NCBI GenBank assembly: GCA_002269645.1
Contig: NIVC01000037.1
Coordinates: 1-64,000, forward strand
DNA: 64,000 nt
Direction: 5' to 3'
From: Macrostomum lignano
Taxonomy: Eukaryota
Below the pieces are notes generated by a model that ran no database searches, was not told where the DNA came from, and saw only the letters and a list, made by a program, of their open reading frames with translations. The position numbers were made by a program, and so were the translations under genes. Positions 6,533 to 63,676 of the stretch are shown piece after piece (position 1 is the stretch's first letter; each line of letters starts with the position of its first letter).

Positions 6533-6750
6533 ATGGCGTGATTATTTGGGTACACTCAAACTAAACCTAAACTACAACTAACTAATGAGTCAGGAGGCAC
6601 ACAAAGTGCGCTCGCTGAGAGGGGTGGGGCGACTGCAAGATAAGACTAGGGGTGGGGTAGAGATAAAAACAAATGTACAGTGGAATGGAAGGCTAACTAA
6701 AGTACTTTCAAGAGCTAAGCTAGGCTAGTCTAAACTATTCAACTTCCAAT

Positions 6751-6819
6751 AAGCCTTTCTAGGAAAGGCCTGCAAAAACTAGAGAATTCTCCTAAGAGTA
6801 TCCCTCCACGGAAATCTTT
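6751..6819 (-). ncRNA. U5: U5 snRNA 3' half only (69 nt), abutting the retrotransposon 3' end
   Basis: Same 69-nt segment and same junction (tcttt|gttgttaaaac) as at 365/366. Confidence 0.9.
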
Positions 6820-7417
6820 GTTGTTAAAACGAGGTGCCGTCGAAACCGGCGCGGGTCAGTTCCGAAGAACTCTGCCGCAGTTATATTTTGTATTTGATCG
6901 AAAGAATTAAAAATATTTACAAGATTTCGATTTGAATATTTAATACGAATATTGAAATAAAATGTACATATATAAAACTATTTTTCAATATTTTGCAGTA
7001 TTTTGCACGCATTTGGGGATAAAAAAGAGGGGAGGGAAATCCCGCACAAAGAAGGGATCTAATAAAAACAGGACATCTAAAAAATACGTGCTAGATATTT
7101 GAAGGCCTATTGAGAATAAAAGCAAGACAAATTAAGTAAAAAAAAGAGATTAAAAATGCAATAGCGCATATTTGAATTTAGTTGTAAAAATAGAATGAAT
7201 ATAGTAAAGGTGTAAAAAAGCAATTAGTAATATTTGTAGAGCAGTTGGGTAAAAAACACAGTTGGGAAAATTGTAAAAAGAAACGCGAGGAGACATAGAG
7301 ATTACCTAATCAGTCCTAATGACTGATCAACCGATCTCTGTCTCAGGCAGCAAGTTTAGTTTTATTAGTTGCGTTTCAGAGCGTGGTCACTTCCGGTTTG
7401 GAAGGCTGGTAGCCAGC

Positions 7418-10020: not shown

Positions 10021-10106
10021 AATCTTCAGGGCTGTGGTTTGATTGTTTGAGTCTACAGTTAACGCACTGAAGTTTCAATTCAAGTCTTGAGTTTAGCTGC
10101 CTGAGA

Positions 10107-11021: not shown

Positions 11022-11247
11022 ATGGCGTGATTATTTGGGTACACTCAAACTAAACCTAAACTACAACTAACTAATGAGTCAGGAGGCACACAATTACACA
11101 AAGTGCGCTCGCTGAGAGGGGTGGGGCGACTGCAAGATAAGACTAGGGGTGGGGTAGAGATAAAAACAAATGTACAGTGGAATGGAAGGCTAACTAAAGT
11201 ACTTTCAAGAGCTAAGCTAGGCTAGTCTAAACTATTCAACTTCCAAT

Positions 11248-22600: not shown

Positions 22601-25600
22601 ATTGGTGATTAAAATGGAGAGATTAAAGATTCAGAGAGAATGGAGATTCATAGGAGAGATTGGTGATTAAAATGGAGAGATTAAAGATTCAGAGAGAATG
22701 GAGATTCATGGGAGAGATTGGTGATTAAAATGGAGAGATTAAAGATTCAGAGAGAATGGAGATTCAGATGGAAAGAATGGAGATTCATAGGAGAGATTGG
22801 TGATTAAAATGGAGAGATTAAAGATTCAGAGAGAATGGAGATTCATAGGAGAGATTGGTGATTAAAATGGAGAGATTAAAGATTCAGAGAGAATGGAGAT
22901 TCATGGGAGAGATTGGTGATTAAAATGGAGAGATTAAAGATTCAGAGAGAATGGAGATTCATAGGAGAGATTGGTGATTAAAATGGAGAGATTAAAGATT
23001 CAGAGAGAATGGAGATTTATAGGAGAGATTGGTGATTAAAATGGAGAGATTAAAGATTCAGAGAGAATGGAGATTCATAGGAGAGATTGGTGATTAAAAT
23101 GGAGAGATTAAAGATTCAGAGAGAATGGAGATTCATAGGAGAGATTGGTGATTAAAATGGAGAGATTAAAGATTCAGAGAGAATGGAGATTCATAGGAGA
23201 GATTGGTGATTAAAATGGAGAGATTAAAGATTCAGAGAGAATGGAGATTCATAGGAGAGACTGGTGATTAAAATGGAGAGATTAAAGATTCAGAGAGAAT
23301 GGAGATTCATAGGAGAGATTGGTGATTAAAATGGAGAGATTAAAGATTCAGAGAGAATGGAGATTCATAGGAGAGATTGGTGATTAAAATGGAGAGATTA
23401 AAGATTCAGAGAGAATGGAGATTTATAGGAGAGATTGGTGATTAAAATGGAGAGATTAAAGATTCAGAGAGAATGGAGATTCATAGGAGAGATTGGTGAT
23501 TAAAATGGAGAGATTAAAGATTCAGAGAGAATGGAGATTCATGGGAGAGATTGGTGATTAAAATGGAGAGATTAAAGATTCAGAGAGAATGGAGATTCAT
23601 AGGAGAGATTGGTGATTAAAATGGAGAGATTAAAGATTCAGAGAGAATGGAGATTCAGATGGAAAGAATGGAGATTCATAGGAGAGATTGGTGATTAAAA
23701 TGGAGAGATTAAAGATTCAGAGAGAATGGAGATTCATAGGAGAGATTGGTGATTAAAATGGAGAGATTAAAGATTCAGAGAGAATGGAGATTCATAGGAG
23801 AGATTGGTGATTAAAATGGAGAGATTAAAGATTCAGAGAGAATGGAGATTCAGATGGAAAGAATGGAGATTCATAGGAGAGATTGGTGATTAAAATGGAG
23901 AGATTAAAGATTCAGAGAGAATGGAGATTCATAGGAGAGATTGGTGATTAAAATGGAGAGATTAAAGATTCAGAGAGAATGGAGATTCAGATGGAAAGAA
24001 TGGAGATTCATAGGAGAGATTGGTGATTAAAATGGAGAGATTAAAGATTCAGAGAGAATGGAGATTCGGGAGAGATTGGTGATTAAAATGGAGAGATTAA
24101 AGATTCAGAGAGAATGGAGATTCATAGGAGAGATTGGTGATTAAAATGGAGAGATTAAAGATTCAGAGAGAATGGAGATTCATGGGAGAGATTGGTGATT
24201 AAAATGGAGAGATTAAAGATTCAGAGAGAATGGAGATTCAGATGGAAAGAATGGAGATTCATAGGAGAGATTGGTGATTAAAATGGAGAGATTAAAGATT
24301 CAGAGAGAATGGAGATTCATAGGAGAGATTGGTGATTAAAATGGAGAGATTAAAGATTCAGAGAGAATGGAGATTCATGGGAGAGATTGGTGATTAAAAT
24401 GGAGAGATTAAAGATTCAGAGAGAATGGAGATTCATAGGAGAGATTGGTGATTAAAATGGAGAGATTAAAGATTCAGAGAGAATGGAGATTTATAGGAGA
24501 GATTGGTGATTAAAATGGAGAGATTAAAGATTCAGAGAGAATGGAGATTCATAGGAGAGATTGGTGATTAAAATGGAGAGATTAAAGATTCAGAGAGAAT
24601 GGAGATTCATAGGAGAGATTGGTGATTAAAATGGAGAGATTAAAGATTCAGAGAGAATGGAGATTCATAGGAGAGATTGGTGATTAAAATGGAGAGATTA
24701 AAGATTCAGAGAGAATGGAGATTCATAGGAGAGACTGGTGATTAAAATGGAGAGATTAAAGATTCAGAGAGAATGGAGATTCATAGGAGAGATTGGTGAT
24801 TAAAATGGAGAGATTAAAGATTCAGAGAGAATGGAGATTCATAGGAGAGATTGGTGATTAAAATGGAGAGATTAAAGATTCAGAGAGAATGGAGATTTAT
24901 AGGAGAGATTGGTGATTAAAATGGAGAGATTAAAGATTCAGAGAGAATGGAGATTCATAGGAGAGATTGGTGATTAAAATGGAGAGATTAAAGATTCAGA
25001 GAGAATGGAGATTCATGGAGAGATTGGTGATTAAAATGGAGAGATTAAAGATTCAGAGAGAATGGAGATTCATAGGAGAGATTGGTGATTAAAATGGAGA
25101 GATTAAAGATTCAGAGAGAATGGAGATTCGGGGAGAGACTGGGAGAGAACGGAGAGATGCAATATACAGAATCGAAAGCTACACACTAACGCAGTTCCAA
25201 CTCCCAAGTAGACATAAAATACAGATTGCACATTCCGGCATGGCAAGGCCAGTCCATGCTCAATGCGCAGATACCAAACAAGAAAGTATGTCTGAGATAA
25301 GAGTGAATAAATTTTAGTCAGGGCCAGTGCTAACTGCATAAGTCAGTGTTAGACTGATATTGATAACAGCAAGAGCTGGTCCTGGCGAAACATAAGTTCG
25401 CAGTGCACGCATGGTCTCTGAAGGCAAAAATAATATTGTTGATCATCGCTAGCAAAGGCAAAGGAGAGCGCACAGAGTGTGCCCGTGCTGTCTTTCAAAC
25501 CTTAAATAGTGGGCAATCAAACCTATACAGAGGTCAATTGACTTCCCCACTAAATTTTTCGCAACTTCAATAGAGGGGTCAATTGACCCCCCGATGTAAA

Positions 25601-28600
25601 CTATGGCTGACAACACTAAATAGAGGGGTCAATTGACCCCCAATGTACACTATTGCTGACAACACTAAATAGAGGGGTCAATCGAACCCCCCCATGTACA
25701 CTACGGCTGACAACACTAAATAGAGGGGTCAATCGACCTCCCTCCAAAGTTCACTTTGGCTGACAACACTAGAGCAGAAATAAGTTTCTAACAGGTGATA
25801 ATTGAATGCTCACCCGCCAGTGATGCAGCTCGCTAACGTAGCCCCAGATAGCAACTGTGAGTGCCCGATTGCCCGGCTCGGTGAGCAGGCCAGTGAACAC
25901 GTAGTCCTCCGTAGTGAACCGATGGCTGTGCCAGCACCGGCCAGCGTCGGTGCTAAATTTAACAACCTGCGGCGAGCTGCCGTTAGCAGATTTCTCAACC
26001 GCTACAAGAAAATTGCCATTGTTGCCAATCTGCACGCGATGCGGGCCTTTCAAAGCCAGGTACCAGGAATAGCCGCCGTCGCTGCTGATGTACACGTCGG
26101 CTGGGTTCGACTGCAGTTTGGCGGCGGTGTGGCCGTGAACGATAAGAAGGCCGACGGCACTGGGCGCTGATCTGGGCTGGTCGGCCGGCACACTGCGGCT
26201 GATGCTGTAATAGGAGGCCACCTGACAGGCGGTTGGGCGGTTATATTAGACCATGAGATTAGACCGACTGTCTCGGAGATCTCACTTATGAGATTAGACC
26301 TACTGTCTCCGAGATCTCACCCATGAGATAAGACCGACTGTCTCACGAGATCTCACCCATGAAATATCACTACTAAGAGATCTCACCCATCAGATTAGAA
26401 ATTGTCTCACGAGATCTCACACATGAGATTAGACCTACTGTCTCACGAGATCTCACCCATGAGATTTAACTACTAAGAGATCTCACCCATGAGATTAGAC
26501 CTACTGTCTCCGAGATCTCACCCATGAGATTAGACCTACTGTCTCCGAGATCTTACCCATGAGATTAGACCTACTGTCTCCGAGATCTCACCCATGAGAT
26601 TTAACTACTAAGAGATCTCACCCATGATATTAGACCTACTTTCTCCGAGATCTCACCCATGATATTAGACCTACTGTCTCCGAGATCTCACCTATGAGAT
26701 TAGACCTACTGTCTCCGAGATCTCACCCATGACCTCTATCTCAGAGGTCTCACCTGCAGATAGCACGGGCCGCCATCAGTAGTCGTACACGTGACACCGT
26801 CAGGTTTACTGAGGTGCCGCCAGACCGCGCCCCTATTATGCGTGATCACGGAGTGCATGGACGCGTCAGAGTGCAGCACGGTGCTCAGGAAGGCGCCGCG
26901 CATTGACTCAACCTTGTAGAAGTCGCTGCTGCCGCCAAGCGGAGGGTAGAAATTCCTCTCCAGGGATTTGGAGAACACCTGGCCAAGACTGTTGGAGGTG
27001 TACAGAGTGCCGTAGCCCAGGTAGTTGCCAGCGTCGATGTGCACGAAGGCCAGACCATCGCTGGTGTCCAAGATGACAAAGAATCTGTCCGGAGTAGCTG
27101 AAGGCAGCTGAGTGCGAACGAATGTCTTGCCGCAGTCTGTTGATACCTGCCAATTATAATTGTGAATATATGATTTAGGGTTTCAATTGTGCAAGTGGGA
27201 ATTGAAGCTATGAAAGTAGCAATTAAGCAGGGAAGTTGAAGGTCAAACGTTAGAGGTCACTGCTATTATGGTTGTGAAAGTGAGAATTATGGTTGTGAAA
27301 GTGAGAATTATGGTTGTGAAAGTGAGAATTATGGTTGTGAAAGTGAGAATTATGGTTGTGAAAGTGAGAATTATGGTTGTGAAAGTGAGAATTATGGTTG
27401 TGAAAGTGAGAATTATGGTTGTGAAAGTGAGAATTATGGTTGTGAAAGTGAGACTTATGGTTGTGAAAGTGAGACTTATGGTTGTGAAAGTGAGAATAAT
27501 GGTTGTGAAAGTGAGACTTATGGTTGTGAAAGAGAGAATTTATCAATGCGAGCTTAGCCACTAAGGCGACTGTGAAAATAAAGACGATACCTCTAAATGC
27601 CTGGACTCGGCCTTGCCCTCGTCCGATTTGGATATAAAAATAAAGCCGTCCTTATTGTTATAAGAGTAGATTTTCTCAGCCAGTGTTTTCCAATTATTGG
27701 ACCCGGCAGTGAAGTCCGTCAGCTTCGCGAGTTGCCGGCCGGGCAGCCTGTGATTGCTCGAAGCGACGCCGTCGCGCAGCAGAGATACGAAGCTGGCTTC
27801 GCCATCAAATGCAGCGTAGATACTGTCCTTATCATCGGCACTAACGCCCCAGGAGGCCTGCGGTTTAGTAGGTGGGGAATCTTTACAACTGATTACTTCA
27901 GACTGCCGCTTCACTGCCGTTAGACACTGGCCTGTACACCTGTTAGACAGGGGATTCTGCATCTGTTAGACACTGGCCTGTACACCTGTTAGACAGGGGA
28001 TTCTGCATCTGTTAGACACTGGCCTGTACACCTGTTAGACAGGGGATTCTGCATCTGTTAGACACTGGCCTGTACATCTGTTAGACAGGGGATTCTGCAT
28101 CTGTTAGACACTGGCCTGTACACCTGTTAGACAGGGGATTCTGCATCTGTTAGACACTGGCCTGTACACCTGTTAGACAGGGGATTCTGCATCTGTTAGA
28201 CACTGGCCTGTACACCTGTTAGACAGGGGATTCTGCATCTGTTAGACACTGGCCTGTACACCTGTTAGACAGGGGATTCTGCATCTGTTAGACACTGGCC
28301 TGTACACCTGTTAGACAGGGGATTCTGCATCTGTTAGACACTGGCCTGTACACCTGTTAGACAGGGGATTCTGCATCTGTTAGACACTGGCCTGTACATC
28401 TGTTAGACAGGGGATTCTGCATCTGTTAGACACTGGCCTGTACATCTGTTAGACAGGGGATTCTGCATCTGTTAGACACTGGCCTGTACACCTGTTAGAC
28501 AGGGGATTCTGCATCTGTTAGACACTGGCCTGTACATCTGTTAGACAGGGGATTCTGCATCTGTTAGACACTGGCCTGTACACCTATTAGACAGGGGATT

Positions 28601-31398
28601 CTGCATCTGTTAGACACTGGCCTGTACACCTATTAGACAGGGGATTCTGCATCTGTTAGGCAATGGCCTGTAAAACCTGTTAGACAGGGGATTCTGCATC
28701 TGTTAGGCAATGGCCTGTAAAACCTGTTAGACAGGGGATTCTGCATCTGTTAGGCAATGGCCTGTAAAACCTGTTAGACAGGGGATTCTGCATCTGTTAG
28801 GCAATGGCCTGTAAAACCTGTTAGACAGGGGATTCTTCATCTGTTAGACATCTGTTAGACACTGGTCTGTACATGTTAGACGGGAGTCTCATATCTGCTA
28901 GACACCTACTCTCCCAGCACCTGTTAGACATCTAGGCTCCCAGCACCTGTTAGACATCTAGGCTCTCAGCACCTGTTAGACATCTAGGCTCCCAGCACCT
29001 GTTAAACACCTTCTCTCTCAGCACCTGCTATACATCTAGGCTCCCAGCACCTGTTAAACACCTTCTCTCTCAGCACCTGTTAGACATCTAGGCTCCCAGC
29101 ACCTGTTAAACACCTTCTCTCTCAGCACCTGCTATACATCTAGGCTCCCAGCACCTGTTAGACATCTAGGCTCCCAGCACCTGTTAGACATCTAGGCTCC
29201 CAGCACCTGTTAGACATCTAGGCTCCCAGCACCTGTTAAACACCTTCTCTCTCAGCACCTGCTATACATCTAGGCTCCCAGCACCTGTTAGACATCTAGG
29301 CTCCAAGAACCTGTTAGACAGTCACTCTCAAACCAATTAATTCACCTTGAACACGCGCTTCTTAATCAAACGCCAATCCTGACCGGCATTAACTGACAAA
29401 TACAGCTTGTCACCGGCCTGGGCAAGCAGCCAATCGGGCTTGTCAGTGTGAAACAAAATCTGAGCAGATTGGACCGGAAACCCGGGGCTGGACAAGTGCC
29501 AGGTGGCACCGCCATCCAGAGTGTAATAGAGAAGTCCGGTGGCGCCGCCCAGCTTAGCGGGGTCGTGGCAGGCCAGGTAGATTCTGGCTGGCTGGGCTGG
29601 ATTCCGCTGCAGGCCCAGCGATTGGGACACTAGAAGGGCGGAACTGGTAGCGCCGGCTTCAAGGATCTTGGCGGTGATGTTGACAAAGGTCCGGCCATCG
29701 TTGGTGCTTCTGTAGACGCTGGAGTCGCGGGTTAGAACACCCTGTGTTCGAATAGTCACTATGATGAGCGTCTGAAATTAATTACATTTATTATATATGA
29801 GCATTATTAATGAGCCTTAGCAGAACAGTTCAATAGTAATTGCTGATAAAACTCACCTGATTGCCTGCCCAAGTCATCAGCAAGCTGGGTTTAGTCTCAT
29901 TGGAGAAGATAAACTACAATTTTAGAAATAGTTAAAAAATTAACAAAAATATTGAGGATTTCTAACACTAAGATATTTGTAATATGACTAGTATAAAGCA
30001 AATTGATGCACTTTTCACTATACTGGCACATATAATAGCAGTTGATAAACTCTAGCCCATGAAGCCTCTCTATCTGGCTTTTAGGCCCTTTGCAACTTAA
30101 TAAAAGCAATCTAGCCTACTCAAATTTTGTATCTCTTCTTAGTTCTTTTTTCTTCTACTCTTTTTTTCTCTTCAAATTTTAATTCTCCTTTCCCTTTCTC
30201 TTTTCTAATCTTTCTCTTTTTCTTTTTTTACTCTTTTTTACTTAATACTTTCCTTTTTCTTTTCTATTATTATTGCTACTTTTCAAATTGCTATAAAACT
30301 TATAAAATATAAAATTGCTCATAGGTATCAAAATGAGAAAGGGTTGGAAAGGGGATATGGCCTTCTTACTTTTAAAGTAGGAGGACCATCAATGGTACTT
30401 GCCTGTCATCCTTTTTTTAGCAACTCTTGCTATATTTTTTGCTAAATAAAGTGCTAAAATTATTTTCAAAATTAATTTATTTATAATATAAGCAATTGCT
30501 TTTTTAAATAAAAGGTAAAAACAAAATAAATCAGATTGGGTCAGATCTAGGATCAGATCCATTGGCATTAGATTAGCAATTAACTGATTATAACAAAGTA
30601 GTAATGATTATAGGCATTAGAATGGAGGTCTAAAAGAGCCATACCCCTATCTCCCACTTTTTAAAAACATTCTAATGTTTATAAAATTGCTTAAATGCAT
30701 TACCATTAGATTAGGTTAAAATTGTCAACTAGCAATGAATTTGAATATAGATAAGCCTATATATTTAAAAATATATAGTAGTAGATTAAGTAAAAGTATA
30801 TAATCTTTGATTTGTTATCAAATTTTGGCAAAAAAAGTAAATCTAAGTCTTATAGCCAATATAATTTCATAGGTTGTTTTAAAAAGTCAATATAATTTAT
30901 ATAATAAGATTATAAGTGATAAGAACTCGTGGCACTGGAAGCATGTGCCTAATAAAAAATGAGTCTAGGTAGCACACAATGCATTGTTTCCTTGACTTTT
31001 TAGTTTTTGATATTTGATTTTGGCTGCTTAGTAATAATAGCTAATATCAAATAATATTTGTGCTTTTTCTCATTTTAGATTCTAATTAGGCCCCCTAGTA
31101 GCTTATAGCTATAAGGACACCCATGCCCCTGTGCCCCATGCCTAGAGCCCTCCCCCCCTAATTGGCCCTAAAATATTAGGCTCCGCTGCCCCTGATCAAT
31201 AAAAAGTACTTTTTAAACCAAAAAAAATTAACTAACCTCTGAAACAAACTTTGATTGAACAGCAGCAGATGAAAGTTTTTCTTTAATATTTTTTTGTTGC
31301 TCAGTGCACTTTGGAGATGAATCGATTGATTTCGTGCAGGAAGTGAAAACAAAAAAGATGATTATCAAAATGCCAAATATGCTTTTCAAAAGACTCAT
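19683..31398 (-). CDS. SORT1: Sortilin-like Vps10p-domain receptor, 8 exons (31237-31398, 29857-29913, 29346-29771, 27591-27857, 26754-27146, 25814-26221, 20792-21199, 19683-20174), about 870 aa
   Basis: All junctions are GT-AG and in frame. Signal peptide MSLLKSIFGILIIIFFVFTSC. Asp-box/BNR repeats SxDGGxTW, STNDGRTF, STDCGKTF and STDAGRCW. A Cys-rich 10CC module (CVLG...CECTKDDFECEFGY), one TM helix, and a tail with YSIV and DKQALL sorting motifs. No LDLR, FN3 or PKD domains. The family call is firm, but orthology to SORT1 is inferred from architecture. Confidence 0.85.
20198..20757. repeat. (CAGT)n microsatellite, about 140 perfect units, filling intron 7 of the sortilin-like gene
   Basis: Direct reading. 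Confidence 0.97.
21240..25130. repeat. Compound minisatellite: 21-bp units (21240-21779) followed by related 58-bp units (21780-25130)
   Basis: Periods 21 and 58, sharing the GAGAATGGAGATTCA core. Lies in intron 6. Confidence 0.95.
25526..25770. repeat. About 50-bp tandem repeat (4-5 units) carrying a GGGGTCAATTGACCCC palindrome or degenerate versions
   Basis: TAGAGGGGTC at 25571, 25621, 25670 and 25721. Confidence 0.85.
26250..26735. repeat. About 35-bp minisatellite (GAGATCTCACCCATGAGATTAGACCTACTGTCTCC), intron 5
   Basis: Tandem units. Confidence 0.85.
27265..27540. repeat. 21-bp minisatellite (ATTATGGTTGTGAAAGTGAGA), intron 4
   Basis: Tandem units. Confidence 0.9.
27920..29320. repeat. 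46-bp minisatellite (27920-28860) followed by a related ~26-bp repeat (28910-29320), intron 3
   Basis: Both share the CCTGTTAGACA core. Confidence 0.9.
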
Positions 31399-33429: not shown

Positions 33430-33723
33430 CATTCGCCTCTCGCCTCTCACTCCCCTCTCACTCTCCCCTTCTCACCCCCTCTCACTCTTTCACTCCCCTC
33501 TCACTCTTTCACTCGCCTCTCACTCTCCCATTCTCACCCCCTCTCCCCTCTCACTCTCCCCTCTCACTCTCCCCTCTCACTCTCCCCTTCTCACCCCCTC
33601 TCCCCTCTCACTCTCCCCTTCTCGCCCCCTCTCACTCTTTCACTCCCCTCTCACTCTTTCACTCCCCTCTCACTCTCCCATTCTCACCCCCTCTCACTTT
33701 CTCACTCTCCCCTCTCACTCTCC
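33430..33723. repeat. CT-rich low-complexity repeat, left flank of the Polinton-like element
   Basis: Same CTCTCACTCTCCC-type units and same orientation as 43083-43600, so one array split by the insertion. Confidence 0.85.
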
Positions 33724-34612
33724 ACTACTAAGGACTGGTAGATCCGCCCTTTTTGGAGGTGGGGTGGGTGTCAACCCTCCTCGCCTCTCATTGGCTGGCG
33801 CGCGCGCCGCAGGCGCGTGGCGCTATCCAGGCGCCAATTAGGCGCCCATGCCGCAGGCGCACCCTCCCGATATGTACCCCGATATGTATGCCCTCCCTCC
33901 CGATATGTATGCCCACCCTCCCGATATGTACCCCGATATGTATGCCCACCCTCCCGATATGTATGCCCTCCAGAGCAGCAGGCGCCTATGCTGCAGGCGC
34001 CCATGCCGCAGGCACCCCGAGTGTACACTCTACCGAGCCGCAGGCACCCCGAGTGTACACTCTACCGAGCCGCAGGCACCCCGAGTGTACACTCTCGCGA
34101 TATGTACACTCTACCACTCTCCCGATATGTACACTCTACCACTCTCCCGATATGTAGTCAACGATATTAGGCTAGTGAAAACTACTTATAGTAGGTGAAA
34201 TTGAGTATATTTACATAAAAATGTAGATAAAACATATTGGTAGGTGAATAATGACGCATAATACATATTGGAGCATATGAGCAGCAAAAACACACAATGT
34301 AGGTGCATGGGCAGAAATAGACAAAGCAGGTACTGTAGGCGCTACATAGGTGGAAATACACACAGCAGGTTTACAAAGTGTACTTTCGATACATATCGGA
34401 TTAATGTATAAAGCAGGTTTACAAGGCATGCATAAGATGTAGTTGTATAATACAGGCACGCATGTATAATCAGATTATAGGCAAACGCCCAGGTGCAATT
34501 TCAACAGACGCGTAAATAATGTCACACCGACTAAAGAGTAAATATTGTCTAGCCCGCAGGTGCATAAAAATTTTAAACAAAAGCGGTTCGGGGAAATCCC
34601 AAAAGGGAGGTT
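33724..34612 (+). repeat. Left terminal inverted repeat (~890 bp)
   Basis: Reverse complement of 42214-43082, with indels in the internal GC-rich repeat block. Confidence 0.9.
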
Positions 34613-34978
34613 CACGGCCTAATGACCCGATATACTTTCAACACAATTAAACCCACAAGTGGGCTAGAAAAATGGACAACGTATTTCGATTGCGCTATCA
34701 GTACGCTAATCAGCGCAGCAAGTTCATGTCAGGAGTTCTACTCCAAGAGGCAGACCGCTGGGCCACAAACCGCCCCGAGGGAATAGGTGTCAAATGGGAG
34801 TTTTAACACTTGAGGGGATCCCGCTCAATGTACAGTGGAGGCGCCAAATGAGTAAGGACCCCTAAGTACAGTGCGGGCGTAAAACCATTTTCATCCCCAC
34901 GAGTCAAGGGATCCCAAGTGGGCACATAGGGGAATCCCAGGCAGGGAGGCGTAAAAAAGATAGATCCTTATCTTTCAC

Positions 34979-37900
34979 TCACTCCCGAAAGCCATACGGG
35001 CGGCTAGCGGCCCCATACACCCTCTTAGTCATTACGCGCTGGAAAGTCTTGTCCATCTCGAGGGTCCGGATTGTACAGCTAGCCTTATCGCGCCTGAACT
35101 GGGCCTGGGGCAGGCGTACAGTCCCGCCGTGACGCAGAATTTCCTGCAGCTCGTCCTCGCGCTCGGAAATCTCGGGCGTGACTCTGATGCCCTTGCACTT
35201 GAGCACCGAGTACAGCGACCCGTCAGGCTTCTCCACCACGTACCGGTAGAGCTTGGGGCCTCCCGTGGTGAACTGTACCATGCGGCAGCCGGCAGGTACC
35301 TCGTCAGTCCACTGCCCCAAACTCGAACCGCCCGGAGGCTCGTACTCGCCCGGGGAGCAGCGGTATACGACCCTGGGAGGAGGAGAAGGATAAAAAAGTG
35401 TTAAGGGGAGAAAGAGAGACAGAGACAGTGAAAAAATTACTTACGAATCGGTATCGGCGTAAATGACGCGGGTTCCTAGACCCTCCAGAGCCTCGTAGAG
35501 TCGCAGCCGGGCGTGGGAGGTGGTGAAAACGCCAATAGGTACATTAGCGTACTTGAACGCCCGCTCGCCAGCACCGCCAAATCGGGGCTTGTACTCGAGC
35601 ATCATAAAGCTCTCCCCAATTGGCTCGCACGACTTGACCTTGATCGAGGGGTCTGTCAGGCGCTGCAGCCACGCCTCGTAGCTGTCCACAATCTCTGTGG
35701 AGGTCAGGTCGTCGCGCTGGCAGAACTTGCCCCAGAGCCTGCAGGGGAAAAATAAATTTTTGTATATCTGGCTACTGTAAGTAGAAAAACATGGTCCCCA
35801 CTGCAAGTAGAAAAACTTACGAGTTTAGAAAAATCTTGGCAACAAAGCGCAGGCCAGGATTTTCTTCCACCTTTTCCAGCCGGACGCCTTCGCGCTCGAA
35901 AAAGCTGGCCATGTAGGCAGCCTTGGCGTCCTCAGCCATCCCCGGCGAACCGCTAGACTCGGCTTTGAGCTTCAAAAAAGTGTTTACATAATCTGCAAAC
36001 AGGCCCGTGCGAGTCTCGGTCCAATAGGCCAGGGCATGAACTGACTGCAGCTTGTAACCCAACTGCAGGGCTTTGTGGAGCTCTGGGGTCGACCACGTGC
36101 CGCGGAGCATTCTCTCAGCGTCAGTGTGTGTACACTCGCTGCTGCACTGGGTCTCCATGCAGACGCGGCAGAGGCCGAAAACCAGCTTCTTGTTAATCTT
36201 GGCGGGCAGTAGCGGGATGTGGAGATTGGTTGGCGGCAGAATCGACACCTCGGCGATGCCAAAATACCGGGCCAGCTGCAGCTCATCCAGTAGATGAGGC
36301 TCGGGGTGGTGTACCGGGTGCCCGACAGGGTACTTGTCAAACTTGTTGACAGTCGGGTAGAGCGACACCTAGGGGATAAGGATAATAGAGAATTAGAGGA
36401 TAAGATAAACTCAAACGCATGTCAACTGTGTGTACAAGTGTACAAACTTACCACATCCCGATAGCGCAGCTCAACAGTCTCGGTGGCCTCGGCGTGCGGG
36501 ACAAAAGCCTCGGTACGGCCGCCAAACAGGGCATCCTCCAGGCGAATAGGCTGCTGGACTGGCGCTCCCTCGTCCTGATAGTCGTGCTCCCACAGAACAC
36601 GCACATTGTATGCAGTGGAGAGCAGCCGGGTGAAGCGCTCAGTCTCCTCATAAATCGCCCGCATTGGCTGGTTCTTGAGCGGGTGCAGCACGTCGCCGTT
36701 GGGGAAGCACTTGGGACAGCCATGGAAGAAGCAGCCATGAAACTGCAGCACTGTCCTGGTCTCTGGGTCGAAGCCGTCGACCTTACGACCCATGGCGAAA
36801 GCCTCACCGCCCGAGTCCGCTGTCCGCAACCGGCCGCCAAACTCGGTTGCATTCAAATGCGCAAGCCAGCACCGCGCCTTGTGCGACTGTACATCGGACC
36901 GGCGGGAAATCACCCCAAGAGTGTTGGGCTCCATAAACTTGGTGGTGAATACTGCCATGGCCAAGCCCGCAATGGTGTTGGATTGAACAAATGCGTCCAG
37001 TCCGCAAATGTCCTTAATCAGGCGGGTGTACTTTAGACAGCCTTCCCGCAAAATTAACGTGTCCTGCAGGCAGTAGTCCAGGTACTCCTTATTGAAATTA
37101 AACACCTGTCCCTCCTGCTTGGCCAGCCAGTCGGCGATGGAGTCATGCTGCTTGTTTTTCTTTCCTCCATACATATCAATTGAGCAGTAGGGTCCCACGT
37201 ACCCCCAATTTTGAGGCTGGTTAAACACGTGCGGGAAATCTCCTTTGGTCAGTTGGGTGCCCAAACCAAGCGCCTTTGGGAATTGCGCCAGACCAATAGG
37301 GATGAAATTGAGGCTGTCCTTGAATGTTATCTTGTCGCACTTCATATACATTAGGCGGCTGTTCTGGAAGATCACTTGCGGCTTCTTCTTGGCCAGTCCG
37401 TTGAGTAGGGCGCCGAGCAGGAGGAATGCGTCATACGCAGAGCCATTGTGCGCAATAGCAATTGCCCCCTGCTTGAACACACTAGTCAGCCAGCAGTAAA
37501 AGGCATCGATAGAGTGCGGCCCGACAGATACAAACTCTCGCATCCCACAGGCACAGTCATTGTGCGAGACACAGCTCGTGAAATCGAGTGCCAAATCGCG
37601 TCCCGCAATGCAATTGGCTGAGCTGTGTAGTCCCCCGCACACGCTGCAGCGGGGCCTGGGGAAGAGTTTGGGACACGCCTCGCAGGAGGTGGCAGCCGTA
37701 ACCAAGTGTACCCGGTGCTGCTTGCCAGAGTCCACGTACGTCTCGAAATCATAGTAAACATACGGGGCGCTAGACTCTTTGGCTTTGGCGGGGTGACAAA
37801 GCACTCGTGGGTGGCAGTTTCGTCGTACTGCTTGCAGACTGGGCACTTGGCATAACCACACTGATGCTCAGGGGGCTGGCCTACTTTTAGTTCTTCTAGA

Positions 37901-39994
37901 TAGCCACACGTGCCGCAAACGTGGACCGAATCACAGCGCGATCTGCCGGCCTTATTCTTGCGCTTGTGATTTTCTAGGCACTGAGCATTATAGCAATTTA
38001 GCCCGCAATCATGGCATCTTACATATGCGCGGTTTGCCTTACAGTTGGAGCCCGGAGTCTTGCATGTACTGCAGGCATCAGCGCACTTGTGCTTGGCGGT
38101 TCGCTATCATAGGCCATCTCGCACTTGGGGCAGTAGCGGCGGCCACCGAAAAACGCAGGCAGCTTGGTGACCACATTAAAGTGCTGCTCGACCAGGTGCA
38201 GGTGCAGAATCTCGGTGCCAGGCAGGTTGAAGATGCACCTGTTGGCCTCCTCTGCGCGGTACACGCGTACACCAAAATCGTGCCCTGGATGCAGCCGGTT
38301 CAGGGCACGGATCGCTTCGGGCAGTGCATCCACCCCGAAAGGACCGGCCTGCGAGACGGTTTGAAGAGTCTGTGTGGGGGTAAAATATTTCTTTTAGTAT
38401 TCCCTGATACTATGTAAAATTCTTTTAGTATTCCTTATCGTAAAAATTCTTTTAGTATTCCACGATACTGTGTAAAAATTCTTATCAGAAAAATACTAGA
38501 AACTTACCGTGTAGAGGCCTGCTTCGACTTGTAGCTCAGCCACCAGCTTAGTCTGGGCGGGCGAATTAGCCTTGATTGTACGCCACAGCCGCTCGGTGAT
38601 GGACTTGGCCACGAATTGCAGGTAGGCGCAGGCCACGACCAGAGCGCGCAGCAGGCACCTCTTGTCCGAGTTGGTGATGCGGACATAGTGCCTGGAGAAG
38701 GCGTGCCGCTCCTCTAGATGCTTGTTCTCGAGAGCACATCCACCTCGAGGCACCCAGGCCTTTAGCAACCGGATAGAAAAGTTGCCTGACAATACAGTGG
38801 CATCCGACTGCACAATCTTGTCAATGTGCTTAAACAACAATTCAGCCGTCATGCGGGCTGCACGCACCGGGGGAGTGTGGGCCGCTTTGAGCATGTTGTC
38901 GCTCTCGAATTTCGCGGCCATAAAGTCATCACCAGCCAAATCTTGCTTGAAAACTTCGAGCATGTCAGCAAACACCTCCCGCAAATCTTCGGTGTTGGTA
39001 ATACGCACCACATACTCGACACCCTTTGCCCTAAACTTGGGCAGGTCACGCTGATTATCCAGCCGGGCCGTAAAACCTGCATGGGGGGAATGGGGGAGTG
39101 TGAGTCAGCCCGGGTCTGTGTGGGAAATGGGGGGCGGGATAACTCACCCGGTCCGGTAACAGATTCCGGCTGTGTTGGCGGGACAAACGCGTCTGAAAAA
39201 ACACAAGGAGATAAAAAACCAGAAGAATCTGTCATTTTCCTGGCCCCAGCGTGTTTCCCGCCCTAGCCCCAGCAATTTCTTAACAGAGTTTACTCTGCTG
39301 TCCCCGCAGCAACTCTCTGCAATTTCTTATCTGCACCCCCGCTGCAGCCTGTCGCAGCAGTCTTTGTTTACTCACCCCTGCAACTCTCTGTCGCAGCAAT
39401 TTGCACCCCAGCTGCAGCCTGTCTGGGTAGCGCCCTATCTGCAGCCCCAGTCTGTCCCAGCAACTCTCTGCCCCCACCCGGCTGAACTTGTCTAGCCTGC
39501 CCCAACGATTCTGCAGCAATTTCTTATCTGCCGCAGCACCCTAGCAACTGTCTGTTTTTGCAGCAATTTCTTATCAGCACACCCCTCCCTGTCTAGACAA
39601 CACCCCACCCCAGTCTTTGTTTACTCACCCCTGCAACTCTCTGTCGCAGCAATTTGCACCCCAGCTGCAGCCTGTCTGGACAACACCCCCCTAGCAGCAA
39701 TTTCTTATCAGCACACACCCGGCTGAAACTTGTCTAGCCCTCCCCTGCAACTCTCTGTTACAGACCCTGCCGCAGCACCCCACCCTAGCAACTCCAGTCT
39801 AGACCCCTGCAGCTGTCGCAGCAGTCTTTGTTGTTTACTCTGCGGTCCCACAGACCCTGCAGCTGCTGCTGCTGCTCAGCCCCTACCCCCACCCTAGCAA
39901 CTACAGTCTAGACAGAAATTAATTAAAACTTACCATAAAGACGTTGCCTCTTGTCAGCCAGGAAAGCAGTTGCGGTGGCGCTGCGTTTAGCCAT
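34979..39994 (-). CDS. polB: Protein-primed family B DNA polymerase, spliced: exons 39934-39994, 39148-39192, 38508-39076, 36452-38369, 35821-36368, 35445-35738, 34979-35372 (two 1-nt frameshifts at ~38105 and ~37790)
   Basis: Exonuclease motifs YYDFET, AHNGSAYD and YCLQD. Polymerase motifs DV|VSLYP, KIFLNS|LWGKF and YADTDS| are restored by GT-AG splicing. The N-terminus has ITNSDKRCLLRALVVA and a CxxC-rich region, plus an inserted DGF...FHGCFFHGCPKC segment. The first two exons are less certain. Confidence 0.88.
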
Positions 39995-40065
39995 TTTGCA
40001 AACAGAGAGCGTGAGAGAGCGAGCGGAGAGAAGGATTATCTCTCTACCCTGGCTCTGGGGGTCTG

Positions 40066-40190
40066 TATATATACTAAAAAATCTGCTCAGCTCGCCTGTT
40101 ATTGGATAAATCGCCAAAAACCAACCAAAATCATCAAAAATCACCCCCAAAATCATCACCCACCCCACCCTCCATCCGGGGGTATATAAG
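40066..40190. promoter_or_regulatory. Divergent promoter region of the Polinton-like element, with two TATA boxes
   Basis: TATATATA at 40066-40073 lies ~70 nt before the predicted PolB ATG (39994, minus). TATATAAG at 40183-40190 lies ~45 nt before the ATG at 40236. A third TATATAA at 40806-40812 precedes the ORF at 40886. Confidence 0.55.
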
Positions 40191-40235
40191 GCGCTGCACG
40201 GCTGTCAGAGAGCTCTCTGCTGCTGCTGCTAAATC

Positions 40236-40769
40236 ATGTCTTCTATCTCTCTATACGAAAACTTTGTGGCGCGGAAGCCCACATTTGAAACTGAACACAA
40301 CTTGATTGAAATTCGGCGTCTCTACACCAACGAGGCTGGAGTGTGGAAGGACGGCTTCCCTGCAATCTACTTGGCCGAGCCAGAGTGGAAGAAGCTCGAA
40401 GCTGCGCGCCCTGACCTGGAGGCTGCTGCCCGCCTTCACGTGAACAAGCGGGTCCTGTTGGGCAATTTCAAGGCAGTTGAAGCTTCGCGAGGGAGGATCC
40501 GTTTGCTGCGCAATTGGCTCAATCAGGACCCAAAGTTTAATTGGCGCTACACGATCGAATTCACGCCTGAACTGTGGCGCCGGATGTTTGCCGCCCGTTT
40601 GGACAAGCTCTTCAAGCCGGCACCTGAGGCACCCCCTCCAGCCAAGCGAGTCAAGACAGACACGCCTCCGGTAGCCGGGACTGAGGTGGATGTTCTTCAG
40701 CTCGTGGGTCTCAAACCCTACCAATCTCCACCCTGGGAAAATCTGTTTAACGAGGGTTGGGACTGCTAG
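40236..40769 (+). CDS. Putative PC4/Sub1-like ssDNA-binding protein (possibly two tandem PC4-like repeats), 177 aa
   Basis: IEIRRLY-TNEAGVWKDG-FPAIYLAEPEWKKL resembles the PC4 pattern (VDIREYW...G..KPG.KGISL..EQW..L). A weaker second copy is IRLLRNW...RYTIEFTPELWRRM. Recognised by eye only. Confidence 0.55.
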   Translation: MSSISLYENFVARKPTFETEHNLIEIRRLYTNEAGVWKDGFPAIYLAEPEWKKLEAARPDLEAAARLHVNKRVLLGNFKAVEASRGRIRLLRNWLNQDPKFNWRYTIEFTPELWRRMFAARLDKLFKPAPEAPPPAKRVKTDTPPVAGTEVDVLQLVGLKPYQSPPWENLFNEGWDC

Positions 40770-40885
40770 TTTCCTATTGGTTCGCACCGCCTCACTCGAT
40801 CCGTCTATATAATTAGTGTTTCCCCCCTCTCCAGAGAGTCAAACCCTATCTCAGCTCTAATACTTTACTCTCTGTTGATTCTAGC

Positions 40886-41900
40886 ATGTCCCGCCGAGCT
40901 CTATCCAACCTCTGGGATAATAATCGCCCGACTGAAGAGTTAACCAGCCTCGACGGGGATATCCCTGAACACATAGTTCCCCTAGGCACTGAAAACAACG
41001 GAAGTGATAATTGGGAGGCTGATCAATATCTAGCTTGGGCTATGTCCTATGATAGCGACACCGAGTCTGAAGTTTTTGACCTCCCGCTGCTGGCTATCGG
41101 CGGGGTTGTGAACGGTGCCCCTGCTGCTACTGCCTCCGATTTGACTACCGCCTCAGCCGCCCTCTTTGACGTCTCTGTTGAGGAGCTGACCACAACCGGC
41201 CCTGCCTCTGCTGCGCCCGTCTCTGCTGCTGCCGCCTCTACTACGCCCGTCTCTGCTGCTGCTTCAACTACCTCCCACCGGGCCTCAATATCATCAGCCG
41301 CTACGCTCCTTCTCTTCGACGACGAGGACGAGGATATGTCTGAGGAGATCGCCGTGGTTCGTGAGCGCTTTCCTCGCATTGTGGCCTCATTTTTCCGCGG
41401 GGACATTGACTGGCTGAGGTCTCGGCATCCTGGCGGGCTGCCCTCCCAAGCTACCTTTGTCAGAGCCTTTAATCGGGTTCTTGATACTTTGGTTGCGAGG
41501 GGTGCCGGCCTACGGGAGGTGTTGGAGGCTGAGACTCTGCACCAGGACTGGTTGATGGGGCGCAATTCGTATGCCCCCGACTCTGAGGCGTACCTGGCCG
41601 GTCCGGGAGCGCGGCCAACTGCGTGGGATGAGCCCGTCGCATGGCCCTCCAACTGGGAGGAGCACCTTTCGTTGGTGCGCTATACAGCGTCTCTACGTCT
41701 GTGGCGGCTGGAGGACGATTTAGATTTGGTAAGATATTACATTATATACACAACTCATCTAATCATATACCTTGCATATATTCTATCTACATTGACTGTT
41801 ATAATTTCCACATTGCCAGTCATCCGACTACTGCTTCGAGAGCGTGGAGGAAGAGGCCGCGTACGAGACAGCCCTGAGGGAGCGTATGGAGATTGACTGA
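40886..41900 (+). CDS. Orphan Polinton ORF, acidic and Ala/Ser/Thr-rich, probably spliced (40886-41728, 41820-41900)
   Basis: A long GC-rich ORF after a TATA box. The AT-rich segment ttg|gtaaga...ttgccag|tca (41729-41819) behaves as a phase-0 intron, giving ...EDDLDL|SSDYCF...RMEID*. Confidence 0.65.
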
Positions 41901-42213
41901 TAAGGGTATTTCTCTTTGTACGCGGTTTGGGGAACCCAACACTGTACACTGGGTAGGTTAGAATGGGCGCTAGCTGGGGGCCTCTATGTGTGTATACACG
42001 GGGGTTAAAAGACCAATTCTGATAGCTCGCTCCTAGGGAGGAAATTGGCAGAGGGGCCGGCCCAAAAAACTGAAATGGGCTGGCCCCGGGCTCGAGTCCA
42101 CCCACCTAAAATATGGAGGGTCATTACAACCTAATGACTCGAAATACTTTCAACGCAATTGTACCTATAAGAGGGTTAGGGCGGCGGCGGCGGTGGCGAA
42201 AACGGGCGGCTAA

Positions 42214-43082
42214 AACCTCCCTTTTGGGATTTCCCCGAACCGCTTTTGTTTAAAATTTTTATGCACCTGCGGGTTAGACAATATTTACTCTTTAGTCGGT
42301 GTGACATTATTTACGCGTCTGTTGCACCTGGGCGTTTGCCTATAATCTGATTATACATGCGTGCCTGTATTATACAACTACACCTTATGCATGCCTTGTA
42401 AACCTGCTTTATACATTAATCCGATATGTATCGAAAGTACACTTTGTAAACCTGCTGTGTGTATTTCCACCTATGTAGCGCCTACAGTACCTGCTTTGTC
42501 TATTTCTGCCCATACACCTACATTGTGTGTTTTTGCTGCTCATATGCTCCAATATGCAATATGCGTCATTATTCACCTACCAATATGTTTTATCTACATT
42601 TTTATGTAAATATACTCAATTTCACCTACTATAAGTAGTTTTCACTAGCCTAATATCGTTGACTACATATCGGGAGAGTGGTAGAGTGTACATATCGGGA
42701 GAGTGTACACTCGGGGTGCCTGCGGTTCGGGTGAGTGTACACTCGGGGTGCCTGCGGCATGGGCGTCTGCGGCATGGGCGCCTACGGCTCGGGAGGGTGC
42801 GCCTGCGGCTCGGGAGGGTGTACATATCGGGGTACATGTCGGTAGGGTGAGCATACATATCGGTAGGTGCGCCTGCGGCTGGGGAGGGTCGCCGGTGGCT
42901 CGGGAGGGTCGCCTGCGGCTGGACGGCGCTTGGCGCCACGCGCCTGCGGCGCGCGCGCGCCGAGCGCCGATATCGATACGGGTATCGATCACCTAGTGAT
43001 CGGGGCGCCAGCCAATGAGAGGCGAGGAGGGTTGACACCCACCCCACCTCCAAAATCAACACTTACGGAATCCCTTAGTAGT
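42214..43082 (-). repeat. Right terminal inverted repeat (~870 bp)
   Basis: Reverse complement of 33724-34612. Confidence 0.9.
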
Positions 43083-43600
43083 CTCTCCCATTCTCACCCC
43101 CTCTCACTCTTTCACTCCCCTCTCACTCTCCCATTCTCACCCCCTCTCACTCTTTCACTCCCCTCTCACTCTCCCATTCTCACCCCCTCTCACTTTTTCA
43201 CTCTCCCCTCTCACTCTCCCATTCTCACCCCCTCTCACTCTTTCACTCCCCTCTCACTCTCCCATTCTCACCCCCTCTCACTTTTTCACTCTCCCCTCTC
43301 ACTCTCCCATTCTCACCCCTCTCACTTTTTCACTCTCCCCTCTCACTCTCCCATTCTCACCCCCTCTCACTTTCTCACTCTCCCCTCTCACGTTCCCCTC
43401 TCACTCTCCCCTCTCACTCTCCCCTCTCACTCTCCCCTCTCACTCTCCCTCTCACTCTCCCCTCTCACTCTCCCCTCTCACTCTCCCCTCTCACTTTCCC
43501 TTCTCACTCTCCCCCCTCTCACTCTCTCCCCTCTCCCTCCCCCTCTCACTCTCTCCCCTCTCACTTTCTTTCCTCTTACACTCCCCCTCTCACTCCGCCT
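43083..43600. repeat. CT-rich low-complexity repeat, right flank of the Polinton-like element
   Basis: Continuation of the 33430-33723 array. Confidence 0.85.
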
Positions 43601-47204: not shown

Positions 47205-49330
47205 GACTTTGAAAGGCGCCAAAACAGACCATGATTGAGGCGCCAGCTAGATTGTTGAGGCGCCAAAACAGATCATGATGGAGGCGCCAAAACCGACCAT
47301 GATTGTGGCGCCAAAACCGACCATGATGGAGGCGCCAAAACAGACCATTATAGAGACTATTAAGGCGCCAAGACAGACCATGATGGAGGTGCCAAAACAG
47401 ACCATGATAGGGGGGGGGGAGGTTCACAAACTCGAAATTTCACTAGGTCGAAATTTCATAACGTCGAAAACTCAAATAGCAACCACTTTCACAATGTCGA
47501 AACTTCACAAGGTCGAAATTTCACAACATCGAAAACTACTGTATGGTTCTTGTTATATTAAATTTTCGACGTTGTGAAATTTCGAGCTAATGAAGTTTCG
47601 ATTTTGTGAAAGTGGCTGCTACTTGAGTTTTCGATGTTATGAAATTTCGACCTAGTGAAATTTCGACTTTATGAAATCTCTTGCTAGAGTTTTCGGTGTT
47701 GTGAAATTTCGATCTTGTGAAATTTCGACCTTGTGAAATAATTTACTTTTCGACGTTGTGAAATAATTTACTTTTCGACGTTGTGAAATTTCGACCTTGT
47801 GAAATTTCGACTTTATGAAATCTCTTGCTAGAGTTTTCGGTGTTGTGAAATTTCGATCTTGTGAAATTTCGACCTTGTGAAATAATTTACTTTTCGACGT
47901 TGTGAAATAATTTACTTTTCGACGTTGTGAAATTTCGACCTTGTGAAATAATTTACTTTTCGACGTTGTGAAATTTCGACCTTGTGAAAGCACCCGCATG
48001 ATAGAGACGCCAGCCAGATTATTGAGGCGCCAAAACAGACCATTTGATGGAGGCGCCAAAACAGACCATATGATGGAGGCGCCAAAACAGACCATGATGG
48101 AGGCGCCAAAACAGACCATGATGGAGGCGCCAAAACAGACCATGATGGAGGTGCCAAAACAGACCATGATGGAGGTGCCAAAACAGACCATTATAGAGAC
48201 GCCAGCTAGATTATTGAGGCGCCAAAACAGACCATGATGGAGGCGCCGAAACAGACCATTATAGAGGCGCCAACTAGATTATTGAGGCGCCAAAACAGAC
48301 CATGATGGAGGCGCCAAAACAGACCATGATGGAGGTGCCAAAACAGACCATGATGGAGGTGCCAAAACAGACCATTATAGAGACGCCAGCTAGATTATTG
48401 AGGCGCCAAAACAGACCATGATGGAGGCGCCGAAACAGACCATTATAGAGGCGCCAACTAGATTATTGAGGCGCCAAAACAGACCATGATGGAGGCGCCA
48501 AAACAGACCATGATGGAGGTGCCAAAACAGACCATTATAGAGGCGCCAGCTAGATTATTGAGGCGCCAAAACAGACCATTATAGAGGCGCCAGCTAGATT
48601 ATTGAGGCGCCAAAACAGACCATTATAGAGACGCCAAAACAGACCATGATGGAGGCGCCAAACAGACCATGATGGAGGCGCCAACTAGATTATTGAGGCG
48701 CCAAAACAGACCATGATGGAGGCGCCAAAACAGACCATGATGGAGGCGCCAAAACAGACCATGATGGAGGCGCCAAAACAGACCATGATGGAGGCGCCAA
48801 AACAGACCATGATGGAGGCGCCAAAACAGACCATTATAGACACGCCAGCTAGATTATTGAGGCGCCAAAACAGACCATGATGGAGGCGCCAACTAGATTA
48901 TTGAGGCGCCAAAACAGACCATGATGGAGGCGCCAAAACAGACCATTATAGAGGCGCCAACTAGATTATTGAGGCGCCAAAACAGACCAATGATGGAGGC
49001 GCCAAAACAGACCAATGATGGAGGCGCCAAAACAGACCAATGATGGAGGCGCCAAAACAGACCAATGATGGAGGCGCCAAAACAGACCAATGATGGAGGC
49101 GCCAAAACAGACCAATGATGGAGGCGCCAAAACAGACCAATGATGGAGGCGCCAAAACAGACCAATGATGGAGGCGCCAAAACAGACCAATGATGGAGGC
49201 GCCAAAACAGACCAATGATGGAGGCGCCAAAACAGACCAATGATGGAGGCGCCAAAACAGACCATGATGCAGGCGCCAAAACAGACCATGATGGAGGCGC
49301 CAAAACAGACCATGATTGAGGCGCCAGCTA
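47205..49330. repeat. 24/25-bp minisatellite (GGAGGCGCCAAAACAGACCATGAT), interrupted at ~47410-47995
   Basis: Tandem units on both sides of the foldback block. Confidence 0.9.
47421..47990. mobile_element. Foldback-like element built from GTGAAATTTCGAC modules
   Basis: Inverted arms 47432-47535 and 47563-47666 (~104 bp, about 90% identical), followed by tandem copies of the same module. Confidence 0.6.
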
Positions 49331-54990: not shown

Positions 54991-55388
54991 AAGGAGGTCG
55001 GACGACCCCCTCTCTCTGAAAAAAGTGCTGGATTCGTCATGCACTGTGGGTATTATTTGGCTCGTAAGCACGTGTATCGAGCATGCAGTTTTCTGCCTGC
55101 TGCCAATGCATGCTTGATACATACTTATTTGCCTAAGTCATTTCGGTTGCCAAGGTGACAATGAAAACAAATCCACTGCATTCTGTTACGGCTTCTTGCA
55201 CCTCTATATTATTTAGCCTTCATGGCTTTCATATCTGCGCAGCAATATGTATGAAGACTTCCTCTCTGCAAACAGGCCATCAGATACTCGTAGATATGGT
55301 CAGCTCAAACAGTTTCTTTTATTTAGCTCTAGAGCAAATATTATCTCCACTGAGCTGAGTGCATGCAGCTCGCTTCTCGCCTGCAGGC

Positions 55389-63676
<8,288 letters not shown>

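Follow-up and report, generated by a model that had tools for sequence, protein, structure and literature searches.

A Polinton-derived element of Macrostomum lignano with an intron-bearing polymerase gene and no detectable integrase or capsid gene

We analysed a window of 64,000 nucleotides (nt) from Macrostomum lignano (contig NIVC01000037.1, assembly GCA_002269645.1, positions 1 to 64,000 of the forward strand) and characterised an element that spans positions 33,724-43,082, that is 9,359 bp from one terminal inverted repeat (TIR) to the other. We consider it probable that this is a reduced, Polinton-derived self-synthesizing element, which encodes a spliced protein-primed DNA polymerase (pPolB) and would obtain its integrase in trans. 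An initial annotation, made from the letters of the sequence, had delimited a complete 9.4-kb element carrying three genes only and flanked by a 6-bp target-site duplication (TSD); the boundaries, the gene number and the duplication were all confirmed (Table 1).

The element ends in ACTACTAAGG and CCTTAGTAGT, the 10-mer ACTACTAAGG standing inverted at both termini, and its end motif reads 5'-(ACT)2A..T(AGT)2-3'. CTCTCC is found on both sides, within a surrounding CT-rich minisatellite where a 6-mer would match by chance with P=0.033. In an empty-site test with 13 removal lengths (0-12 nt), only the removal of 6 nt gave back the unit of the minisatellite array: the rejoined unit occurs elsewhere eight times as a 20-mer and six times as a 28-mer, and the other 12 lengths gave no occurrence. 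Because 6-nt removal alone restores the array unit, the 6-bp TSD is real. Its size fits the 5-8 bp, usually 6 bp, of the Polinton/Maverick criterion, and both TIR lengths lie inside the corresponding range of 100-1500 bp. A reading of the termini as those of a CACTA transposon was rejected, the fit being limited to the left end. No similarity was found between the element and the remainder of the window, and an Rfam scan of 33-44 kb gave no match.

The TIRs consist of two contrasting parts. The inner block, AT-richer (38% GC) and located at 34,115-34,612 on the left, is 97.8% identical between the two ends over 498 columns, with five substitutions and one 6-nt gap. In the outer ~390 bp, which on the left form a GC-rich zone of short repeats (62% GC) and include a 51-bp perfect block at 33,751-33,801, the number of short repeats is unequal between left and right. 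Over their whole length the TIRs share 84% identity with 12 gap openings, so that the near-identity initially ascribed to them holds for the inner block and not overall. The proposal of a young insertion is better supported by the 98% identity of this block and by sister copies that are 98-100% identical than by the whole TIRs. Just inside the terminal 10 bp, a stretch of 16-17 nt is mismatched between the TIRs, and the right TIR holds a two-hairpin insert of ~49 nt (~42,955-43,003) that the left one lacks; the end hairpins fold moderately better than shuffled sequences (z -2.7, -2.8 and -1.6). The translation of this insert was found at the polymerase-side end of a sister gene model, P0029. 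The TIR variants thus seem interchangeable between the ends.

The minus-strand pPolB gene contains six GT-AG interruptions, of the form GT(A/G)AGT...YAG with pyrimidine-rich acceptors, each of which restores the frame when removed. Introns 3-6 have a GC content of 28-40% versus 54-62% in the exons, and the joined product, with X at junctions and breaks, covers 1,276 positions with zero stops. Junction-spanning sister gene models are found for introns 2, 4, 5 and 6 (17, 15, 25 and 14 of 33, respectively). Judging from these sequence features, we take the six interruptions to be canonical spliceosomal introns. Introns 4, 5 and 6 interrupt the catalytic motifs A, B and C, respectively, which are uninterrupted in 87, 63 and 76 of 90 non-Macrostomum homologs. 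The initial annotation had seen frameshifts in this gene: the six interruptions are accounted for by introns, and two true frame breaks are left, both in exon 4 (near 38,100 and 37,790). Sister models read through them in one frame in 20/29 (first break) and 26/29 (second break) cases, and a break at the first site may be shared by the nine models that omit it. Between tandem LINE copies of this window there are four single-base indels and five substitutions in 3,835 columns. Two breaks in 3.8 kb would be about what such indel noise produces, and those of this copy may be assembly noise or private decay.

PF03175 (DNA_pol_B_2) matches pPolB twice (E=4.4e-18 and 4.9e-13), and the protein carries Exo I-III and motifs A-C. 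Exon 4 comprises the second half of an OTU-like region, a Cys-rich zinc-finger region, the 3'-5' exonuclease motifs I-III and a VSR-like insert. At the sequence level, exons 3-4 align to the N-termini of other pPolBs (E 1e-10 to 1e-17), the Cys and His positions being conserved; exon 3 would thus encode a terminal-protein-like and OTU-like region, the domain names being those used in 10.1101/2024.03.18.585575, while a PDB sequence search with exon 3 gave no match. Among 213 homologs tested for the acceptor of intron 3, 105 scored, and these favour the downstream site (38,349) by 88 to 10 with 7 ties. Exon 1 is the weakest exon, being used in 1/33 sister models. Intron 1 contains, at 39,300-39,870, direct repeats of ~150 nt at 78% identity and two additional GTGAGT donor-like sites.

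Table 1. Features of the element and its flanks (positions in the 64,000-nt window).
Feature	Position	Strand	Remarks
Left TSD CTCTCC	33718..33723	.	inside CT-rich host minisatellite
Left TIR, 889 bp	33724..34612	+	starts ACTACTAAGG
pPolB exon 7	34979..35372	-	after motif C to stop
pPolB intron 6, 72 nt	35373..35444	-	GTAAGT..CAG, phase 2, splits motif C
pPolB exon 6	35445..35738	-	
pPolB intron 5, 82 nt	35739..35820	-	GTAAGT..CAG, phase 2, splits motif B
pPolB exon 5	35821..36368	-	PF03175 E=4.9e-13
pPolB intron 4, 83 nt	36369..36451	-	GTAAGT..TAG, phase 0, splits motif A
pPolB exon 4	36452..38369	-	true start probably 38,348
pPolB intron 3, 138 (or 159) nt	38349..38507	-	GTAAGT; acceptor 38,370 or 38,349; 28% GC
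pPolB exon 3	38508..39076	-	putative N-terminal terminal-protein-like and OTU-like region, common to other Polinton pPolBs
pPolB intron 2, 71 nt	39077..39147	-	GTGAGT..CAG
pPolB exon 2, 45 nt	39148..39192	-	kept in divergent subfamily
pPolB intron 1, 741 nt	39193..39933	-	GTAAGT..CAG, internal direct repeats
Probable pPolB exon 1	39934..39994	-	ATG, basic 20 aa
Putative divergent promoter region	39995..40235	.	TATA-like boxes 40,073 (minus), 40,183 (plus)
ORF2, 177 aa	40236..40769	+	probable PC4-like ssDNA-binding protein
ORF3, orphan	40886..41900	+	exon 1 40886-41728, intron 41729-41819, exon 2 41820-41900
Right TIR, 869 bp	42214..43082	-	
Right TSD CTCTCC	43083..43088	.	

The element is not an isolated insertion. 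Among the best 120 of 264 pPolB matches (proteins of 780-2,225 amino acids (aa) counted), 30 are M. lignano clusters, comprising 43 sequences. These are 51-100% identical, the next best among the matches listed being at ~30-40%, and the pPolB studied here is 30-40% identical to animal Polinton pPolBs. Relatives of the open reading frames (ORFs) 2 and 3, searched among proteins of 97-310 and 154-492 aa, are likewise all from M. lignano (4/4 and 6/6, respectively). Ahead of pPolB, the sister models include the ORF2 region in 12/30 cases and the ORF3 region in 5/30, the gene order is unchanged in at least five models, and P0029 spans ORF3, ORF2, pPolB and TIR sequence in a single model. Chimeric models place two copies within an ADAM gene and one within a C2H2 gene; at least three insertion sites are distinct. 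The seven Macrostomum rows of a quick 57-row tree group in a single clade (SH-aLRT 100) on a long branch (stem 0.89) and fall into two subfamilies. It is very likely that these elements make up a mobile family whose pPolB is spliced. Many copies with the same gene order lie, according to the gene models, at different host loci; the element is therefore not a one-off deletion, and its initial description as Polinton-derived, with pPolB and without integrase, stands.

The divergent subfamily likewise has a PC4-like gene beside pPolB, as seen in P0038. When the N-terminal 74 aa of the divergent models were examined as antisense PC4, the scores (0.33-0.39) were within the null (positive control 0.98), so that the head-to-head order in this subfamily is derived from P0038. 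In P0038 and P0140, both of the divergent subfamily, an ORF ending like the ORF3 C-terminus runs into sense pPolB, which would point to copies nested in one another or joined tail to tail as dimers, or else to a different gene order.

The introns themselves appear to be old. The divergent subfamily is ~62% identical overall, with 57-74% identity per exon, and in seven of its proteins 6/58 alignment breaks fall at introns 4 or 6, compared with 5/975 at introns 4-6 in 90 outside homologs. One divergent model ends right after motif C, where the unspliced frame of the window ends as well; in others the sequence changes at the start of exon 2, 3 or 7 or after exon 3. True deletions inside catalytic motifs would be lethal. 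Since intron positions are common to a subfamily with ~38% protein divergence, the comparison of gene models indicates that the introns arose long ago and move together with the element. They are mutually unrelated, the best intron-intron match being 11 nt, and have no copies elsewhere in the window. A break-coincidence test on close models with unique boundaries was not significant (5/119, P=0.09).

We found neither an integrase nor virion genes, in agreement with the initial annotation. Among the 148 six-frame segments of at least 40 aa scanned with Pfam (E<=0.01), none matched rve, capsid, ATPase or protease families, nor any RNA polymerase domain; two matched DNA_pol_B_2, the sole family above its curated cut-off, and three had sub-threshold, unrelated matches. 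Walker A, HHCC or integrase-like patterns were found in 0/222 segments. The 30 M. lignano pPolB models lack domains for rve, capsid, ATPase and protease, and the six ORF2/ORF3 models scanned lack an integrase domain. Besides the three genes, the interior consists of unassigned gaps of 366, 241, 116 and 313 nt and the 741-nt intron. There is no coding room for an integrase or a capsid outside ORF3 and this intron, in which each frame holds 10-12 stops. The orphan ORF3 had been named as a possible hiding place; Pfam, PHROGs and ESM Atlas revealed no integrase in it, and PHROGs matched 0/12 proteins.

ORF2 can be proposed to encode a PC4-like single-stranded DNA (ssDNA)-binding protein, as initially annotated, although this is a supported lead and not a firm call. 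Its relative P0038 (42% identity over 138 aa) reaches 21.1 bits for PF02229 against a cut-off of 25 (E=2.2e-4), and ESM Atlas scores of 0.86-0.87 for PC4 likeness serve as a lead only. The ORF2 look-alikes include one Preplasmiviricota cluster. A PDB search with the ORF2 alignment gave no match, and the AlphaFold2 model was unusable (mean pLDDT 34.8). ORF3 is acidic, with a low-complexity N-terminal half and only ~135 ordered residues; residues 140-309 had no usable match in ESM Atlas, and the AlphaFold2 model of an ORF3 gene model was equally unusable (mean pLDDT 33.1). Its intron is used identically by 5/6 database models. TATA-like boxes stand 50-80 nt upstream of all three ATGs, that of ORF3 at 40,806. 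The names that UniRef gives to relatives of ORF2 and ORF3 ('DDE_Tnp_1_7', 'replication endonuclease', 'ParB' and others) were not adopted, since they are mutually contradictory and Pfam supports none of them. Three ORF2 variants (P0001, P0002 and P0004) have a short alternative tail similar to the end of ORF3, hinting at an even shorter subfamily.

With Polintons/Mavericks (Polintoviricetes; animal group, adintovirus-type pPolB) the element shares an N-terminally extended pPolB with exonuclease and motifs A-C, long TIRs, a 6-bp TSD and triplet-repeat termini. It measures 9.4 kb, whereas Polintons/Mavericks are given as 13-25 kb (10.1101/2023.08.22.554363), and at the Pfam level it has none of their RVE integrase, ATPase, Ulp1 protease and capsid proteins, both major and minor; the RVE integrase is presented as definitional in PMC5499653. 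Polinton core genes are described as intronless, with introns possible in cargo genes (10.1101/2022.07.12.499685), and intact vertebrate Mavericks as being without introns (PMC8097293), in contrast to the six pPolB introns found here. The end motif, 5'-(ACT)2..(AGT)2-3', is inverted relative to the one usually found: PMC8097293 gives 5'-(AGT)2//(ACT)2-3' or (AG)3//(CT)3 as common, along with a 5'-(AC)3A variant. A VSR insert in pPolB was described in a survey confined to integrase-linked pPolB (10.1101/2023.08.22.554363). The element would replicate like a Polinton, yet it departs from the group in its lack of integrase and virion genes, its size, its end motif and the introns of its polymerase gene. 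Short non-coding non-autonomous Polintons are present in Repbase. Gene-lacking Polintons include nine elements with joint loss of the major capsid protein, protease and ATPase, as reported in PMC4028283, and insect variants without polB (10.1101/2025.02.07.637071). Such elements keep the integrase or have lost the polymerase, whereas here a spliced polymerase is kept and the integrase is lost. As for the adintovirus hexon and chromodomain-bearing integrase (10.1101/2024.03.25.586562), neither was found in the element.

Spliceosomal introns within Polinton-like genes are shared with dinoflagellate Maverick/Polinton-like elements, whose genes are reported to carry introners (10.1101/2025.03.18.643946). 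Introners are repeated transposon families, mostly gained post-integration, while the introns studied here are unrelated, single-copy in the window, common to old subfamilies and found in an animal host. Mirusviruses, in which spliceosomal introns are taken as a sign of nuclear reproduction (PMC12768974), are unrelated giant capsid-encoding protist viruses and offer a conceptual parallel only. The linear plasmids of fungal and plant mitochondria and cytoplasm are, as described in 10.1101/2024.03.18.585575, likewise pPolB replicons that have a fused terminal protein and lack capsid and integrase. Our element differs by its integration with a TSD, its spliceosomal introns, its TATA-like promoters, a pPolB of the animal Polinton type and the fact that no RNA polymerase of its own was found. 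As the polymerase interruptions are mostly introns, they point, against the initial proposal of a linear-plasmid-like lifestyle, to an element that resides in the nucleus and depends on splicing, and not to a cytoplasmic or mitochondrial linear plasmid. In the literature that we searched, which lay mostly outside subscription papers, the founding papers of 2006-2007 and Repbase, we found no animal Polinton with a spliced pPolB, no integrase-less family keeping pPolB and no Macrostomum Polinton; the supplements of PMC5730564 and PMC5173321 contain no Maverick/Polinton/PF03175 match.

We can propose the following cycle. Host RNA polymerase II would transcribe pPolB leftwards and ORF2/ORF3 rightwards from the TATA-like promoters, and the spliceosome would excise the six pPolB introns and the ORF3 intron. 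pPolB would then prime at the (ACT)n termini via its own terminal-protein domain and copy a freed linear DNA form in the nucleus, with the displaced strand covered by the PC4-like protein. Since copying would proceed from DNA to DNA, the introns would be inherited with the element. Insertion of new copies would fall to an RVE integrase of Polinton type that cuts with a 6-bp stagger; its gene would lie elsewhere in the genome, either in a longer relative or in a partner whose ends match (candidate helper). Nothing points to a virion stage.

Several observations weigh against this reading. Compared with the motif common in vertebrate Mavericks, the end motif is inverted, so that a standard integrase may not recognise it. 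All 30 M. lignano pPolBs listed fall in the clade that appears to be integrase-less, and the length limits applied to the ORF2/ORF3 searches hide any fusion to an integrase. The TSD is known from one copy only, and one would not expect the outer TIRs to diverge in a protein-primed genome that has just been replicated. The sister models come from automatic prediction; many are chimeric and many use other splice sites, and their counts overstate insertions because M. lignano assemblies are redundant, as noted in PMC5730564. Finally, no sign was seen that intron 5 is shared with the divergent subfamily, and the coincidence at the intron-3 position was discounted, as controls break there too.

Alternatively, the family may represent a Polinton lineage that is split (bipartite) or free of integrase, polymerase and integrase now travelling separately, a view that we hold as a tentative and rather unlikely one. 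The pPolB copies would then act as replicase modules of the nucleus, rich in introns and devoid of capsid; integration would come from a partner that lacks a polymerase and has the same inverted (ACT)n ends, or from an uncharacterised protein of their own. That the element integrates itself by means of its own proteins and host repair, with ORF3 being an integrase that escaped recognition or the VSR-like insert a nuclease that nicks the target, appears improbable. The lack of an integrase domain in the 30 pPolB models and in the six ORF2/ORF3 models scanned, the long independent branch of the Macrostomum clade, the unusual polarity of the ends and the VSR-like motif itself would fit such a scheme. 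Nevertheless, this motif is also present in 84/90 ordinary homologs and is therefore no special adaptation, ORF3 has few ordered residues and no family match, three ORF2 models have a short tail in its place, and the clean 6-bp TSD is the signature of a Polinton integrase.

The idea of a dead deletion derivative of a canonical Polinton, with introns gained post-integration (e.g. by introners) or with interruptions that reflect nothing but decay, could draw on the two true frame breaks, on the divergent outer TIRs and on the dinoflagellate elements, which get introners mostly after integration (10.1101/2025.03.18.643946). It is largely refuted, and we give it little credence: the layout is identical in many copies at different loci, most of the 29 sister models cross each of the two break positions in one frame, and single-base indels are frequent here anyway, as in the tandem LINE copies; the introns, for their part, are neither related to each other nor copied in the window, and their positions persist across ~38% protein divergence. 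Packaging as a satellite genome in the virions of a helper Polintovirus, in part an initial suggestion, is very improbable. While the retained replication functions and termini and the Preplasmiviricota cluster among ORF2 look-alikes would suit it, neither a capsid-related gene nor a helper is seen, and the seven introns and the confinement of close matches to one host species suggest vertical, nuclear spread. Least credible is a host-domesticated pPolB gene family that gained introns under host selection and spread by segmental duplication. Intron gain is described as typical of domesticated transposon genes, and TATA promoters and redundant assemblies also speak for it; the TIRs, the precise TSD in a minisatellite and the copies within unrelated host genes argue the contrary.

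Elsewhere in the window, tandem near-identical non-LTR retrotransposon copies (endonuclease, reverse transcriptase, gag-like zinc knuckle; second copy internally deleted) occupy 857-11,030, with an ORF for an AlkB-like 2OG-Fe(II) oxygenase domain ahead of the non-LTR retrotransposons at 4,833-5,819 (PF13532, E=7.5e-20). A host sortilin/Vps10-domain gene, whose introns are filled with minisatellites, lies at 19,683-29,777 (minus strand); the element is ~4 kb upstream of its farthest identified exon, possibly in the 5' region of the gene. At 47,423-47,989, an array of a 16-nt unit occurs in inverted orientation with a 113-nt palindrome at 90%. A host C2H2 zinc-finger gene (Pfam zf-C2H2) is found at 55,359-57,970 (plus strand), presumably resembling an Ovo-type factor.

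It is still debated whether Polintons should be seen as viruses or as transposons, and the core genes of the group are considered intronless. Here, a family without capsid or integrase carries six fixed introns in pPolB and still spreads with a 6-bp TSD, which provides a test case for a full turn to nuclear, vertical life. As the introns lie inside all three catalytic motifs, polymerase activity would depend on splicing, which is thus a possible control point. Surveys that require pPolB beside an integrase, or intact or long ORFs, would miss such elements, and more may exist in other animals. For Macrostomum lignano, a transgenic model animal, RNA and piRNA data are publicly available. If the bipartite or integrase-free reading were true, a complete virus-to-transposon conversion would have been caught together with its intron gains.

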